From: Kondoa subrosea | Taxonomy: Eukaryota | Length of the DNA stretch: 64,000 bases | NCBI GenBank assembly: GCA_039545335.1 | Contig: BCIN01000001.1 | Location: 2,669,136 to 2,733,135 of the forward strand | Direction of reading: 5' to 3' | Part shown: positions 22,754 to 39,541 of the stretch, piece after piece | Layout: every line of letters starts with the position of its first letter | How positions within the stretch are numbered: the first letter of the stretch is position 1 | Notes under the pieces: model-generated | What the model was told of the DNA's origin: nothing | Databases searched by the model: none | Seen by the model: only the letters and a program-made list of their open reading frames with translations | Program-made: the position numbers and the translations under genes

Positions 22754-25177
22754 ATGGCTTCATTAGCACATTTCAAGACTCCTGCTGTCGGTCAGTGCTC
22801 TATCGAACCTGTTGGCAGCGTTTCTGATCCGATTAATACCTTAGAGAACGAACCCAATGTAGGCTCTGCCGTCCATCTTGAGCTTGAGAGCGCGCACTGA
22901 CAACAGATGACGCTTGATTAAAGGTTCACTATCTACCTGGCTCGCCTGAACGTAAAGCTGTCGATGCTGCGATCGCCGAATACCGCAAAGCTGGCACCCT
23001 AGAAGTACCTTGCTGGGTCGGTGGTAAAGATAAGTAGTCTGAAACCTTCCCCGCCCTCAAATATCCTATGTTGATCCTGCTTCGGTATCCACAGGTGAAG
23101 ACCAGGTATACCTCCTTCTCGCATTTAGACAACACGCACAAAATCTGATTTCATCTGCTGCTCTCTTTCAGCAACCAAACGCTTCAGAAGAACCCAGGCA
23201 ACTACGAAGAAAATGTAGCTTCAGCTCATCAGGCTGACGAAGCTACAGTCAAGCTAGCTATCGAATCAGCTCTTGCAGCTAAGCGCGATTGGGAAGATAT
23301 GCCATGGAACGATCGAGCTGCGATCTTCCTCAAAGCTGGCGATCTCTTCGCTGGCAAGTACCGCGCAAAGATTGTTGCCGCTACCATGCTTGGTCAGGGA
23401 AAGAATTACTGGCAGGCCGAGATAGATGCCGCAGCTGAAGTATGTCACTCCTCATACTTGGCTACTGAAGTGCTGATCGACTGACTTTAGCTGATCGACT
23501 TCCTTCGCTTTGGAGTCAAGTACGCTGAAGAGGTCTATTCCATTCAACCACCAAAGAACTCAAAGGGTGTTTGGAATCGAGTCGAATATCGACCACTTGA
23601 CGGCTTCGTGCTCGCAATTACACCATTTAACTTCACTGCCATCGCAGGCAATCTGCCAGCTGCTCCAGCTATGCTTGGCAATGTTGTTATCTGGAAACCT
23701 TCACCTCTGGCCATTCTGTCAAACTATCTGATTCTCCAAGTTCTGCACGAAGCTGGTCTGCCAAAGAACGTGATTCAATTCATTCCCGGGCCGCCAGAGA
23801 TGATTTGCAATACTGCTTTCCAGCATCCCGATTTCGCTGGCCTTCATTTCACTGGCTCGACATCTGTCTTCAAACATCTGTGGAAAGAGATCGCTCAGAA
23901 CATCGATACTCTTAAATCTTACCCTAGAATTGTTGGCGAGACGGGAGGAAAGAATTTTCATCTTATCCATTCTTCGGCGGACGTGCAAGCTGCTGTTTTA
24001 CAAAGCATTCGCGCCGGGTTCGAATATTCAGATACGTCTCGCACATGCATGTCTACGAAAGCTAAAATAGGTTACGTAGATACGCCAAAAGTGCAGCGCA
24101 TTAGGACGCTTATACGTTTCCGAATCGATCTGGGAAGAATTCAAGAACCGATTGCAGACTGAATGCAAGAAAATTACGCTTGGAAATCAAGAAGAATCGC
24201 ATTTTATGGGTCCAGTTATGTGAGTCAGCATCTCTAAGCTCTGTCTATTCCCATGATACCTTGTGCAATAGCTCAAAGCAGTCTTACGACAAAATCACCA
24301 GTCTGATTGAAAAAGCCAAGAAAGCTGGAGGGGAAATCATTGCTGGAGGCGGCAGCGATATGTCTACTGGGTTCATGATCGAGCCTACTGTCATCCTTAC
24401 CAAGGATCCTAAGAGTATCACTATGGGTATGTTGAGAGTATGCCAATGCCGAATTCTGGCTGATGTTCTTCCCTTCAGTCGAAGAAATCTTTGGCCCTGT
24501 CATTACAGCGTAGGTCAAGTATCTCTCCAGTGTCAACTTGGTGTGCTCATGGGCATATGTCTCTCTTGATTGTTAGTTATGTCTATCCCGACAACGAATT
24601 CGAAGAGACTTGCAAACTGATCGACGAGACAACCTCTTACGCATTGACTGGCGCCGTGTTTGCCCAAGATCGATCTGCTCTAGTCAAGGCTTCTGCTTTG
24701 TTGCGATCTTCCGCTGGTAATTTCTACATCAATGAGTAAGTGTCCCTAAGCTGCTGACAGGTCGAAACCTAATGAGCGTGTAAAGCAAATGTACTGGCGC
24801 CGTGGTAAGTCACACTTCTTATTATTTGTAGCGAATGACTCAGATCTTGCCGGCGCAGGTTGGACAACGTGAGCCGGTCTCTTTGAGTTGGGAGTAATGT
24901 ACTGACCGTTTTCATAAGAACCTTTCGGAGGTTCTCGCGGCAGCGGAACTAACGACAAAGCGGGAGGTATCTACCTTACCAGCAGATTCCTGAACCCTCG
25001 ATCGAGTAAGTCGGATGCCCAATGATTATGACATGGCTAATGTAACGCGTACTTTGTAGTCAAGGAGAACTTCATTCAGTACGTAATGCACGCGCATTCT
25101 TCAATACAGAATAGCTAAATCGACAACTCTATTCTACCAGCCCTGACACTTTCTTATACCCTAGTAACTCCCAATAA
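22754..25177 (+). CDS. PUT2: delta-1-pyrroline-5-carboxylate dehydrogenase
   Basis: ATMLGQGKNYWQAEIDAAAE, ITPFNFTAI, HFTGST, VGETGGKNFH, EYSGQKCSA (across an AT-AC intron), EEIFGPV, QQPFGGSRGSGTNDK. Confidence 0.96.
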
Positions 25178-31210: not shown

Positions 31211-34200
31211 ATGAATTCAGATTTACACTTGCGAAGTCTGGCAGCAAGCCAGCCAGCGGCGCCTCTACGCCGAGCTGTTCCTATTCCGCGAACATACAAT
31301 CTCTTTGGAGCGGATAAGGCTACTACATCACTGGCGAGATCTCCTCTCGCGAGAGGTTCACCTCGACGACCCGCCTCGCTTCCCATGGCCCAAAGTTTTC
31401 CGCCTAGAACGCGGCCTACCGATGCTCACTTTACTTCTGTGCCTCCGCCGCTTGGTTTAGGACGGGCAATGCCTATTCTTCCGGTCAGATATTTCGGTTG
31501 ATCGTGTTCACAGCTATTGATGCACAAAGTAGCCTCGTCCGCAGCCGCAAGCAATTAGGCCTCGTCCGCTAGAGCATCTGCGCCCTCTGCCTCCTGTATC
31601 CTCTTATACGCACCTCCCATATTCCCGTGCTTATACAATCTTCTAGCCACCTTTTGGACTTCGCCCGACTAAATCTTCACCTGACTTGAAGCAAGCTACC
31701 TTGCCAGCCTCAGTGAGCTATCAAATACGTCTTGCATGTATGAATTGAATTTACTTTGTTCAGTTGGAAAAGGACTATCAAAAACCTAATATGAAGACGG
31801 TCGACGCGAAGAAAGAAAAGAAAGATGCCACGGATAAGAAAGCAGATGACAAGAAATCAGAGGATAAAGGGAAAGAACAATTTGAGAAAGACAAGAAAGA
31901 TTCAGAAAAGAAAATAGCGGATGATAAGAAAAAGGCAGTAGGTCAACCAATTAGGAGCAGTCCAAACTCTCGGCTGATTTTCACTAGGACGAGGATAAGA
32001 AGAAAGGTGAAGAATTCGTCAAGAAACAAGCTGACGATGCCAAAAAACAAGCTGAAGAAGCGAAAAAGAAAATGGAGGAGGAAGTAAGCCTCGGGTTGAG
32101 AGAATCGATCTATAACTGATAGAGAGAGATAGAACAAGAAAGCTATGGCTGCTGGTCCAAGTCTGACGGTTAGTCTCGCTGTTTAGTTCTTAATTTTACT
32201 AATTTTAAAGCTCAGAGCATGATGGTAAGTAAGCGGAAGCTCCAAAGGATCTACTCTCAATGAATATAGGGCGCTCCACGTCCGATGCTTCCGGATCTGG
32301 CTCCTGCTGCGTGTGTTATGTTATTAGCTTGATTTGGCGTGATCGCTGATCGGCCATTTCTGTACAAGCCCACCTGCTCCAGTGAGTCTTCTGGACTATA
32401 TCGGGCCTTATCTGAATCTGTTGCTATATAGCCCGCTGCGCCAGTCAGTAATTACGAATTTCTAGTTTACCGTCTGATAGTAGCTACATAGGCAGCTCCA
32501 CCGGCTCCAGTGAGCCAGACATATACTGAACTCCATATTTGCTAATAGAGCTGCTATCTAGCCACCAGCGGTAAGTCGGTTTGTGCATTTCTGATCGTGT
32601 CTGATCTGCTTCGTTATCAGCCTGCACCACCGTACGTAGAACTTGCCTATGCTGATGTGCATTATTTGATTTGATCGTGGTCATTACAGACCAGCTGTAA
32701 GCACTTTCAAGATGTGTCCTATTTCGCAATCTCTGAAATCATTTTGACTTAGGCTGCTCCACCTGTCAGTCAGTGCTCTTGTATGACCTGAGTCTGATTC
32801 TGATGTCAGACTTCATTTTAATGTAGCCACCTGTAAGTGCTCTTGTATGATTTTATCATCCCAGACTCACCTTGATCGTAGCCACCTGTTTGTCTTGGCT
32901 CCTTCTGCCTTTCGTGCTGATCTGAACTTTATTCTTGGTAGCCTCCAGTCCGTTCGGCTTTCTTCATGTAGGGTTGCTTCTGACTTTTTTTCTAGCGTAT
33001 GTCAAAGGCCTCTTCCGTAGCACTCATATCTACGCCTTTGATTAATAGCTCCGCCGCCGCCACCTCCCCCTCCACCTATTCCGTAAGCTCGCTGCAATGC
33101 TCGCAAGACTTATGCTGAAATAGTGTCGCTTGGAATCGTCAGGCCTCCGTAAGTGTTTGGTTTGCGTGATCTGCGTATATACTGACATACTGACTTAGTC
33201 CTGTGAGCCTATCACGCAGTCTGTCTAGCTGTTACTGATTTGCTGGTGATTTCAAAGCCACCGTACGTCCAAGCTTCTGAAATTTTCTAATATGGCATAA
33301 GCTTACACCCTTGATGCTGTAGCCCACCACCACCTGCAGCACCGCCGAAGGCACCAGATCCACCTGTAAAGTTCATACCAAGATTCCGGACTTGCGCTGA
33401 TCCCTGTTTTCGTCTTGTAGAAGCCGGTATGCTGGCTTGATCAACCTTTGGAGATCTCTACTAATGTTGCTGTGTGTTCATAGCCAACGCCAGCCGCTCC
33501 AGTTAGCCTACCATTTCTTGTCGATGTCTGGGCGAGTCTGACTATCTCGGGTATTCAGGCTGCCGCTCCCGTTCCTACTCCAATTCCCGCGATGGTCTAT
33601 CCTTGGGCGGAAATAATGCAACAGCTTGCTCCTGCTCTGATGCAGCAAGCTCAGATCAAGCCTGCGCAAAATGATCCTAAGGCAATCGAGGATTCTGTAC
33701 ATCAGCACAAACCGCAAGAAAAGCCTCAAGAGCACAAAACCTCAGTCGGTTTAATTCGTCCTAGCAGTGTGACGTAGACTCATTGATTTGGTTCAGCGCA
33801 ACGTGCCTTCGGCAGGACGCTTTCGCAAAGTATGGTCATTCCAGGCTCAATGTACACCCTCTAATATTGCTCTGTAGCTCTCCGACGAATGGAATCCCAT
33901 GCAAGACATGATGGAACAACTTGGCGTGCCGGAGCGAGATCGGTATGGTAGCGTACATGTCATAACGAGCCTGTATTGATTGATTGTCTAGGCCCAGTAC
34001 CGGTCAACCGTCTCGGAGAGTCTCTCCACCATTTCATCATGCCGATTTACCTCAAACCAGAGCTCCAGGCATCCCTGCTTTTGGTCAGACCCCACGACAA
34101 TTCTCGCGGTTTCCAGTAAGTGAGCCATAGGCCAATAGGCTCCACGTGCTTATAGGTTTGCCTAGCAGGAGGCGCCCCTGCAAGCACCTATTTTGGAAGA

Positions 34201-36182: not shown

Positions 36183-39100
36183 ATGGCAGAGCAGCTTGTA
36201 CGTCAAGCAAAGAGCTATATTGGAGTGATGATCCAATGTTTTGAGCCAGAAAGCGCAAATGCTTGAAAGCAAGCAGCAAGCTCTCCAGTAGGCTCAAGCA
36301 ACCTCCTGATATATCTGTTAAACCCGTGCTCTGCCTTTGATAGGGCTAGCCAAGCCAGAAGAGCGAATTTCCTGGGTCAAGCCTTCGAAGCATTGCGTGC
36401 CCTTCGAGAAATTGGTGTTGCTGTGCAGATCCCTTCAAATTCGACTGGCAATGAAAGCGAGGCTGCCTTCATTCAACACTTTCAAGAGTCTCAAGAGTTG
36501 GTCTTCTCGCTTATGCCAGATTTATATCTCACTTCTAATGCTCCCTTTGATCTTCGCTTAGAAGTGTGCTGGACTATCTACCTACCGAGCTGCCAGCTAT
36601 TGAGGAAGCGCCTATAGGCTCTCCTCTAACGTCTATCTCTTCCAACGATGAATTGGACAAGCCAACGGAACCAGAATCAACCCAGGTTCAAGCAATGCTG
36701 ATTGATACACCTGCAGTCTCGCAAGCGCAGGATGCTTCCACACAAGAAGATCCTGCTAGACCTGTCTCACCCACTAGTGCATCAGTCGAAGCAGCTCTGC
36801 GTCCACCACCGCGAGAAGTCTTTCCGCTTCGACAGAATACTACCGCCAGTACTTCACAGTCTCAGGTCACTAACTCTGAAACTCCAATCACATCTATATC
36901 ACCATCTCTGCTGTCGATGAAGCCTCATCCAGTAGCTTCTACTTCGTCCAGAAGAGCTGATACAAACTGGCGCCCAGCATCTCTACCGTTGCGCTTCGAG
37001 ACCAAGCTACCCAAGCTTCCACAGGTTATACTTCGCAACAGACCTCAAGCAGGTGGACTGTTGCGAAAGAAGAAAGAACGAGAGAAAGATTCTCGGAGCA
37101 GCGGATTGAGCGGTGGAACAGAACTCTTCAAAATGGGTCTCTTGCAACCAACGCACTGTCCAGCCCGCAACATGGTTGGACAGCCGTCAGATAGTAAAGC
37201 AAGAGTGATCAGACCTGGGAAAGTCGTCCTTACGAGCGATTGGTCTGTTGCTATACAAGAATTGAAAGGATTGAGAGCGATGGAAAAGATTGAGCAGCTC
37301 AAGAATGAAGGCAGATGGGCTTTTAGGCAGATCAAAAAGCAGAAAGCACCTTCCATTATCAAGTCACATCGAGATTACATGCTCGACGAAATGGTGAATC
37401 TATAGTATTGACTTCGTTGAATCTATACTGATACTTAGCCCTCAGAAATGGCTCCAAACTGACTTTAAGCAAGAGTCTCGGTGGAAAGTCGCAAGTGCCT
37501 TTTCTATCTCCACCGCGATTCTGGCATATCATGCTGCCTCACCCGAAAATCGTAAAGCCATGTGCATATCGGTCCGTCGTACGCAATTTATCACCGAGGC
37601 AGAAGAAGCAGACGACGTCATCAATACAGAAGAAGTCAACGATGCAATGGATGTTGACCAGCCGATATCAGCTTCCCCTTCCAAAGACGCTCCCGAGCCA
37701 AGTCAAAACATGCCACCTTCTTCCACCTCAGCAAATGCTTCGGCTCAAGTCACTAGTCAAGGGCAGCCTGCCTCGTCTGCCGGTGTTCCCACGAAGAATG
37801 CCTCGGTGTCTTGGGAACAGCTCATACACCTTCGCTCACCATTGTTCCAATTGCCAGATACTGCTACTACTATAAGTCTATCACAGCTTCCGCTGGACAA
37901 GGTTTTACCACCAGACGCAGCTGAAAGAACAAATACAGAACTGCTCAATGGCTTAATGCCTGATATTCCTCTCTATGAAATGTCCCCAGTCCCTGCGGCA
38001 AATGATTTGAATCGTCTTGATCGACGCTTTGACGAATCCTCAGTCAATTATAATCGTATGACCCACGTTTCGAAATGGTTTGACAACAAGCCCTTCTTGG
38101 TCAGTACACTCAATCCAGCAAAGAAACTCAAATTGGACCGAACATGGGGTGATTTGGCCGATATTGGAGTCGGTGATGATCCCCGCGAATATGATCTTAG
38201 ACCCGATACGACTGCTTTTGGACCGAGTCGGTATAGTCTTCTTTTCCAGACGTGCCGAGGTTTAAGTGTTATTCTTCAGATCTCTTCAATGGCCGTAGAC
38301 CAAAAGATCTCGCACCTGGTCTCAACATCGCAACGCCTAAAGAGCCACCTAACGCAAGCTCCAGGAATTTGGATTGGTCTGAAGCGGAAGACAACCTATT
38401 GCTAATGATGTCGAAACAATACTCGCACAACTGGCATCTCATAGCGGAAGTCTTCAATAGTACTACTGTTCGTGTGCCTACTGATCTGCGGCAACCTTGG
38501 GATGTTTATGATCGGTGGAACAAGAGATTTGGTCCTGGTAGTCAACCTAATCTCAATACTGATGGGAAAGAAGCAGCAGGAAATCAAGCTAAGAAAGACA
38601 AAGCGAAGAAGCAGACTGGGTTTGACGGTACGAAGAAGGAGATCAGACATCTCAGTCTGTATGAAGCGGTTAGAGCGATGAGAGCTCGTAGAGATGCGCA
38701 ACCGCCTAAGATGGCTCGTAAGCAGTTTTGTTCAAGAGCAAGTATCTAGCTGAACTTTGTTTGGCATTAGCAAACGCACCTCGCAAAGTCAACCTGTCCT
38801 CGCATGAAACTCACACTCAACCACTTCGACCCATCTTAACGCCTATTGAGATCAGCAAGTTGAAAGGAGAGAATGATCGGCAGCAAGCAGTCCTTCGTCA
38901 ACAGCAGCTCATGCTCCGTCAACAGCAAGCCGCTATGGCTCACCAATTCCAAATGCAACAGCAGCAGAACGCTAGACTGCAACAGCAGCAAATGCAACAA
39001 CAGCAGGCTGAAGCTCAGAACGGGATGCAGAATGGTTCGCAAGGCCAACCTTCGCAACAAGGCGTAAGTGACTTCAATTCTGTTCTGGATCAACAAGCTG

Positions 39101-39541
39101 ACGAGAATCATCCAGTCGCGACCAGGAAGTACTGCTCCGACGAATGGAAGTCCTGTTCAGGGTGCTGGACAACTACCTGTTTCGCCTGCTCCTCAATTCA
39201 ACGGGCAAGTCAATGGCAGCCCTTCAGCAGGTCAACCGAATCAACAGATCCTCGCTTCGATGGCGCTTATGAACCAATTCACTCCAGCTCAAGCAGCTGC
39301 TTTTCAGAATCAGTTCCGAATGAGTGCTAGCTCGCCGGGCAATTTGCAAGGCGGTGACAATCAAGCACAACTTCAAGCGGTTCTGCAAGCTAGGATTGCA
39401 GCAGCTCAGGCTCAACAACATCAGCAACAGAATGCTCAAGGACAGCCATATCCTCAACCAGTCAGTCAGCATTCGCAAAGACAGCCTTCCATGAGCGAAC
39501 CAGAATCGCAACCAGATTTCGCTAGTTTGACAACATTGTAA
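36183..39541 (+). CDS. EAF1: NuA4 scaffold Eaf1/Vid21 (HSA + SANT/Myb domains, Q-rich tail)
   Basis: KIEQLKNEGRWAFRQIKKQK...HRDYMLDEMKWLQTDFKQESRWK (HSA); WSEAEDNLLLMMSKQYSHNWHLIAEVFN (SANT); poly-Q C-terminus. Confidence 0.88.

Follow-up and report, generated by a model that had tools for sequence, protein, structure and literature searches.

A candidate single-nucleotide exon in an intron-saturated, polyproline-coding gene of a basidiomycete

Can a single nucleotide, set between two complete introns, serve as an exon in its own right? The question is raised by a C at position 32996 on the + strand of the window (the whole stretch of 64,000 nucleotides of DNA that was analysed), where the bases from 32979 to 33002 read CTGAC, seven T, CTAG, the single C and then GTATGT. 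Upstream of the C lies a 6-nt exon of two proline codons (32942-32947, + strand), which from its sequence and the gene model ends in phase 0. It is followed by an intron of 48 nt (32948-32995) with a GTCCGT donor of 5.0 bits, a CTGAC at 32979-32983 that ends 12 nt before the acceptor, a tract of seven T and a TAG acceptor of 6.4 bits. Downstream of the C, an intron of 52 nt (32997-33048) has a GTATGT donor of 7.2 bits, a branch-like TTGAT that ends 7 nt before the acceptor and a TAG acceptor of 8.6 bits, the AATAG ending at 33048. The next exon is 34 nt long (33049-33082, + strand), carries nine CCN codons and, again from the sequence and the gene model, is entered in phase 1.

The original prediction had described 32948 to 33048 in these terms; its coordinates are correct and the sequence reads as it claimed, and the two flanking introns are indeed of typical length, since the introns used for training average 53.5 nt (sd 4.9, range 45-62). 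The proposed exon, which is argued from the reading frame, path scores and shuffles, would consist of C 32996 only, the first base of a proline codon whose second and third bases come from the start of the exon at 33049-33082. The layout is that of a spliceosomal single-nucleotide internal exon, an AG-N-GT in which each flanking intron has its own signals and a normal length, and the C is required if the flanking exons are to share one coding frame, although an alternative 97-nt intron would also keep that frame. Judged from the sequence, it is likely that C 32996 is a real internal one-nucleotide exon in a spliceosomal, intron-saturated basidiomycete gene.

The host gene is modelled on the + strand from 31791 to 33777 as 24 exons separated by 23 GT-AG introns of 45-62 nt, with an uninterrupted reading frame. 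It begins with an ATG at 31791 and ends with a stop codon at 33775-33777, giving a coding sequence of 765 nt and a product of 254 amino acids with no internal stop. The first twelve exons measure 147, 96, 36, 9, 41, 13, 12, 18, 9, 11, 7 and 12 nt and the remaining twelve 6, 6, 6, 1, 34, 6, 4, 5, 43, 6, 18 and 219 nt. The predicted protein has an N-terminus rich in lysine, aspartate and glutamate, a proline/alanine-rich core and a C-terminal exon of 72 amino acids, with a total of 67 prolines and 42 alanines, and it is the proline/alanine-rich middle that is encoded by exons of 1 to 43 nt. Of these, five have 6 nt (starting at 32827, 32882, 32942, 33143 and 33421) and others 7, 9, 9, 11, 12, 12 and 13 nt. 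Most of the micro-exons in the core are in phase 0, as are 17 of the 23 introns, so that skipping these exons would keep the frame. A branch-like motif of the form YTRAY is found within the last 35 nt of 20 of the 23 introns, including both of those that flank the C.

Intron density between 32216 and 33501 is extreme, with 20 introns placed within 267 coding bases of the proline/alanine-rich core, or about one intron per 13 coding bases. The intron at 33366-33420 has an atypical donor, GTAAAG, which lacks a G at +5 and is the weakest donor of the gene (2.5 bits, or -0.7 in leave-one-out scoring).

Small exons and short introns are also found in a gene nearby. Among named organisms, Tulasnella (71%) and Sistotremastrum (70%) give the best matches to a P5C dehydrogenase fragment at 23491-24162, and a contig protein matches it at 91%; by its sequence, the source organism is a basidiomycete. 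Further along, at 24736-24918, this gene has a 19-nt exon at 24786-24804 and a 10-nt exon at 24859-24868, set among introns of 50, 54 and 50 nt, and an exact local match to the homologue P0001 across the junctions confirms the two exons. That check was made from coordinates and covers part of the gene; four further introns, estimated by eye, measure about 51, 52, 52 and 67 nt. Introns this short and exons this small are thus normal in this genome. On the other side of the host gene, at 36551-39330, long + strand open reading frames with a weak match to the HSA domain (PF07529, E 5e-5) and a glutamine-rich tail probably represent a gene for an Eaf1/Vid21-like chromatin protein.

Searches for relatives of the host gene were made mainly with the 72-amino-acid last exon. 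This gave no homologue among the longer proteins searched, no match in an exhaustive HMMER search of 1.84 billion representatives, no Pfam family and no usable Atlas match. In metagenome contigs, 523 matches to its back-translated pattern were obtained, none of which was confirmed, and an exact exon pattern of 26 nt gave no match. The locus could be young or decaying.

The argument for the C starts from the reading frame. Both the three 6-nt exons that precede it and the 34-nt exon that follows are runs of CCN codons with variation confined to the third base. Such a pattern is the mark of selection for proline, and it sets the reading frame on either side without reference to the remainder of the gene. 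Both flanking blocks thus read as proline, and with phase 0 at the end of the first block and entry in phase 1 at the second, one base (modulo three) is needed between 32947 and 33049. Without the C, the 34-nt exon falls into a Leu/Arg/His frame and a stop is reached about 20 codons into the last exon.

A comparable need attaches to a second tiny exon, which was absent from the original prediction. This is the 4-nt exon TCCT (33199-33202, + strand), which is flanked by an intron of 50 nt (33149-33198) and one of 55 nt (33203-33257), and the skipping of which leads to a frameshift and a stop. It is the best of seven local paths, at 27.0 bits versus 9.5 for a single intron of 109 nt. Without TCCT, or without both TCCT and the C, the reading shifts and ends at a stop in the last exon, and within the gene model the frame to the last exon is closed only when both the 1-nt and the 4-nt exons are used. 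In this region (33149-33262) the exon that comes next after TCCT is also very small, with 5 nt (33258-33262).

The gene model bears out the prediction that the C combines with the following CT in a proline codon and holds the subsequent CCN run in the proline frame, and also that skipping the C shifts the reading to Leu/Arg/His. Local enumeration of splice paths agrees that retention of the second intron shifts the frame, and the alternative AGs at 32971 and 33020, which had been set aside as leading to in-frame stops, do not occur among the stop-free paths from the donor at 32948. The term frame-obligatory is too strong, since at loose thresholds and over the whole stretch 740,948 stop-free, frame-compatible paths lead to the last exon, and TCCT further downstream is a condition of the frame as well. 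All three frames are open in the proline-rich exons. The frame argument for the C is not absolute, since a 97-nt intron from a donor at 32952 keeps the proline frame and the frame of the last exon is without homology support.

Splice paths were scored with matrices for the donor (6 nt) and the acceptor (14 nt) that were trained on the gene's 19 introns that do not border the 1-nt or the 4-nt exon. In leave-one-out scoring, these introns give donors of -0.7 to 9.0 bits and acceptors of -1.4 to 10.0 bits, a range within which all four sites around the C (5.0, 6.4, 7.2 and 8.6 bits) are found. An unsupervised estimate of donor-acceptor distances in the window outside the gene gave no length peak, and the matrices are therefore poor discriminators beyond the gene from which they derive. 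Locally, every combination of GT and AG sites from 32942 to 33082 was enumerated for introns of 30-150 nt, which left 15 stop-free paths. The best of these, at 31.3 bits, is the 48-nt intron, the C and the 52-nt intron, and it places the 34-nt exon in the proline frame. A path that uses a donor at 32952 with the C as an exon reaches 28.3 bits, one with a 5-nt exon 22.5 bits and a single 101-nt intron 10.3 bits, all three with the 34-nt exon in the wrong frame, whilst a single 97-nt intron that starts at 32952, with GTTCGG as a weak donor, has 7.8 bits and keeps the proline frame with one valine inserted. Across the gene, the top global path, with 134.7 bits, is the model that contains both the 1-nt and the 4-nt exons, and among the 25 global paths listed it is the only one to read proline and alanine, with a few lysine, aspartate, threonine and isoleucine residues, throughout. 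Every sequence-based test that was run favours the candidate one-base exon.

The frequency with which such a site might arise by chance depends on how strictly it is defined. When the interior of the 101-nt segment was shuffled with its ends kept, 17 of 200,000 shuffles gave an internal acceptor-N-donor at least as good as the real one, that is, an AG-N-GT with scores at least equal and both sub-introns of 40-65 nt. With loose cut-offs the same shuffle of the 101 nt gave a composite in 0.22% of cases. A loose scan of the window on both strands found three composite sites, with exons of 1, 4 and 5 nt, all of which are within the gene at 31791-33777. Block-shuffled windows at the loose cut-offs have a mean of 2.58 composite sites, and of 0.64 for one-base exons. 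Three real sites against a shuffled mean of 2.58 indicate that the bare acceptor-N-donor motif is not rare and has no genome-wide significance, and the weight of the one-base exon motif comes from its position in the intron chain and from the frame.

The alternative that survives best is that 32948-33048 is spliced as a single 101-nt intron, such that the C is absent from the main mRNA; the frame would shift after the polyproline run and an early stop would follow in the last exon. What results would be a truncated or NMD-targeted isoform, or the gene would be decaying and non-functional. Both of the outer sites are usable (donor 5.0 bits, acceptor 8.6 bits), the path is locally stop-free, the shifted frame meets no stop before about codon 20 of the last exon, and the gene has no homologue to prove that its C-terminus is constrained. 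Against this stand the score of 10.3 bits versus 31.3 and a length far beyond the 45-62 nt of the gene's other introns, with those of the neighbouring P5C dehydrogenase gene short as well. A 101-nt intron would also bypass a perfect CTGAC, T-tract and AG and a strong GTATGT, the combination matched in those 17 shuffles, and would turn a CCN-periodic exon into a Leu/Arg/His reading. On this evidence the single 101-nt intron is considered unlikely.

Still less probable is a single 97-nt intron that begins with the weak donor GTTCGG (32952) and ends at 33048, in which case four bases would be kept upstream, one valine would be added and there would be no one-base exon. This path is stop-free and ends in the proline frame, and its donor, at 2.5 bits, equals the GTAAAG at 33366 that is accepted in the gene model. 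With its score of 7.8, however, it ranks lowest among the proline-frame options with plausible intron lengths; it is twice the usual length and it skips both a better donor 4 nt upstream and a strong internal acceptor and donor.

Least probable of all is an artefact, either a base-calling or assembly error near 32996 (such as the loss of part of a longer micro-exon) or a 'gene' that is not transcribed, for whilst the gene is an orphan, the site around 32996 is not a homopolymer and thus no obvious error hotspot, and 23 consecutive intron-like segments of 45-62 nt between same-frame blocks that together give a 254-amino-acid open reading frame from ATG to stop are hard to obtain without selection for splicing.

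How might an exon of one base be recognised? In the favoured one-base exon reading, the proline/alanine-rich core would be split by about 20 short introns of 45-62 nt, each with its own donor, branch motif and acceptor, so that splice sites would be paired across the introns, by intron definition. Only one base separates the acceptor of 32948-32995 from the donor of 32997-33048, and therefore two spliceosomes could not coexist there. The two flanking introns would instead be removed in succession, with either order leading to the same product, and the retained C, as the first base of a proline codon, would maintain the frame of the polyproline run. At a recursive splice site, or ratchet point, an acceptor abuts a donor and no base is left behind. 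The present arrangement shares with it an acceptor beside a donor and consecutive reactions on one stretch, which makes it a likely mechanistic analogue, and the process envisaged here would be similar except that one base stays in the mRNA. A true zero-nucleotide recursive site was rejected, as the C lies between the AG and the GT and the frame is lost when the whole stretch is removed. It is reasonable to infer sequential splicing, as was done for APC11 of Arabidopsis (PMC4674806).

The array itself has features that bear on how it was formed. From 32765 to 32995 on the + strand, the families D4, D9 and D10 and z-scores against shuffles mark out a run of intron-plus-micro-exon units with residual similarity between their introns. 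Introns 12 and 13 have a z of 4.1, a score that none of 500 shuffles reaches, introns 14 and 15 a z of 2.8 (5 of 500) and introns 15 and 16 a z of 2.1 (17 of 500). For introns 13 and 14 the z is 0.45 (180 of 500) and for introns 18 and 19 it is -0.7 (390 of 500). At 32765-32887 there are two adjacent units, each an intron with a CCACCT exon, and their introns agree at 17 of the first 18 bases. The relatedness of these two units suggests a recent tandem duplication that created an intron. More generally, the residual likeness of neighbouring introns points to tandem duplication of intron-plus-micro-exon units for part of the array, and it is probably in this manner that the array grew. The one-base exon may have originated from a duplicated unit of an intron and a C, or from a six-base exon that was shortened.

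An introner-like, multicopy origin was considered and rejected, since a blastn-short comparison of 32200-33560 with the window gave only an internal 15-nt repeat and three matches of 14-15 nt that are at chance level. It is a tentative and somewhat doubtful proposal that the locus is a hotspot of intron multiplication, in which units of a short intron and a proline micro-exon have been duplicated in tandem within a low-complexity coding region to give about one intron per 13 coding bases of the core, and in which exons as small as is physically feasible (1, 4 and 5 nt) need an ordered, recursive-like removal of introns. Were it a hotspot, the phase-0 micro-exons could allow combinatorial skipping that tunes the length of a polyproline linker.

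With 23 introns in 765 coding bases, the gene would, if the one-base exon is confirmed, be a compact natural substrate for questions about splicing and micro-exons. One of these is how the spliceosome handles adjacent introns whose signals nearly touch, including the order of removal and steric exclusion, and another is how arrays of micro-exons arise. There would also be a practical lesson, in that gene callers break such genes unless they allow for exons of 1-5 nt.

Several known systems resemble parts of this locus. In the fungal stwintron, as described, an internal intron interrupts a splice signal of an outer intron, which becomes functional after the first excision. The arrangement around C 32996 does not qualify as a stwintron, since each of the two introns has all its signals intact in the primary transcript. 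The micro-exon genes (MEGs) of Schistosoma have very small, mostly symmetric exons between normal end exons and encode secreted proteins. The host gene shares with them a run of micro-exons, of which those of 6, 6, 6, 9, 12 and 18 nt are in phase 0. A MEG of the Schistosoma type was rejected, as the N-terminus here is highly charged with no hydrophobic leader and there are asymmetric exons of 1, 4, 5, 7, 11 and 13 nt; the resemblance is not meant to suggest any kinship.

Exons of a single base are themselves on record. Although it is fair to call them very rarely reported, as the original prediction did, there are published examples from fungi. In the agaricomycete Coprinopsis cinerea, the long-read annotation is reported to contain 13 exons of 1 nt in 13 genes, with 57 exons of 2 nt and another 27 of 3 nt, and leaving out such tiny exons often creates premature stops there (PMC12230235). 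That fungus has short introns, the same kind of feature and a place in the same broad lineage; its cases rest on full-length cDNA reads, whereas the present one is built on sequence logic (PMC12230235). A term search of a Cryptococcus transcriptome paper gave nothing on minimal exon size (PMC3990503).

In the CYP621A P450 genes of Fusarium, a single-nucleotide exon has been confirmed by SRA reads and is described as conserved in at least 20 orthologues (PMC12940212). Here too the gene is fungal and nuclear, an AG-N-GT sits inside an apparent over-long intron (139 nt against a median of 56 in Fusarium), and the base is needed for the compatibility of exon phases. The Fusarium base is a G within AGGGT and belongs to a conserved motif, in contrast to the C of a low-complexity orphan protein described here (PMC12940212). 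APC11 of Arabidopsis has a constitutive, RNA-supported one-base exon between two spliceosomal introns, which was demonstrated with reporter constructs in which the identity of the base did not matter, and its authors argue for intron definition and the successive removal of introns (PMC4674806). The two cases are alike in this proposed route and differ in that APC11 is a plant gene with an experimentally established exon (PMC4674806).

The one-base exon in the present gene is a probable addition to a kind of exon that is already documented and, if confirmed, it would add a basidiomycete case to the few on record. What is unusual here is the context, a polyproline-coding orphan gene whose core has about one intron for every 13 coding bases, with several exons of only 1-7 nt one after another. 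Unlike the conserved-motif P450 and APC11 cases, a confirmed exon at C 32996 would lie in a fast-evolving polyproline region, beside exons of 4, 5 and 6 nt.
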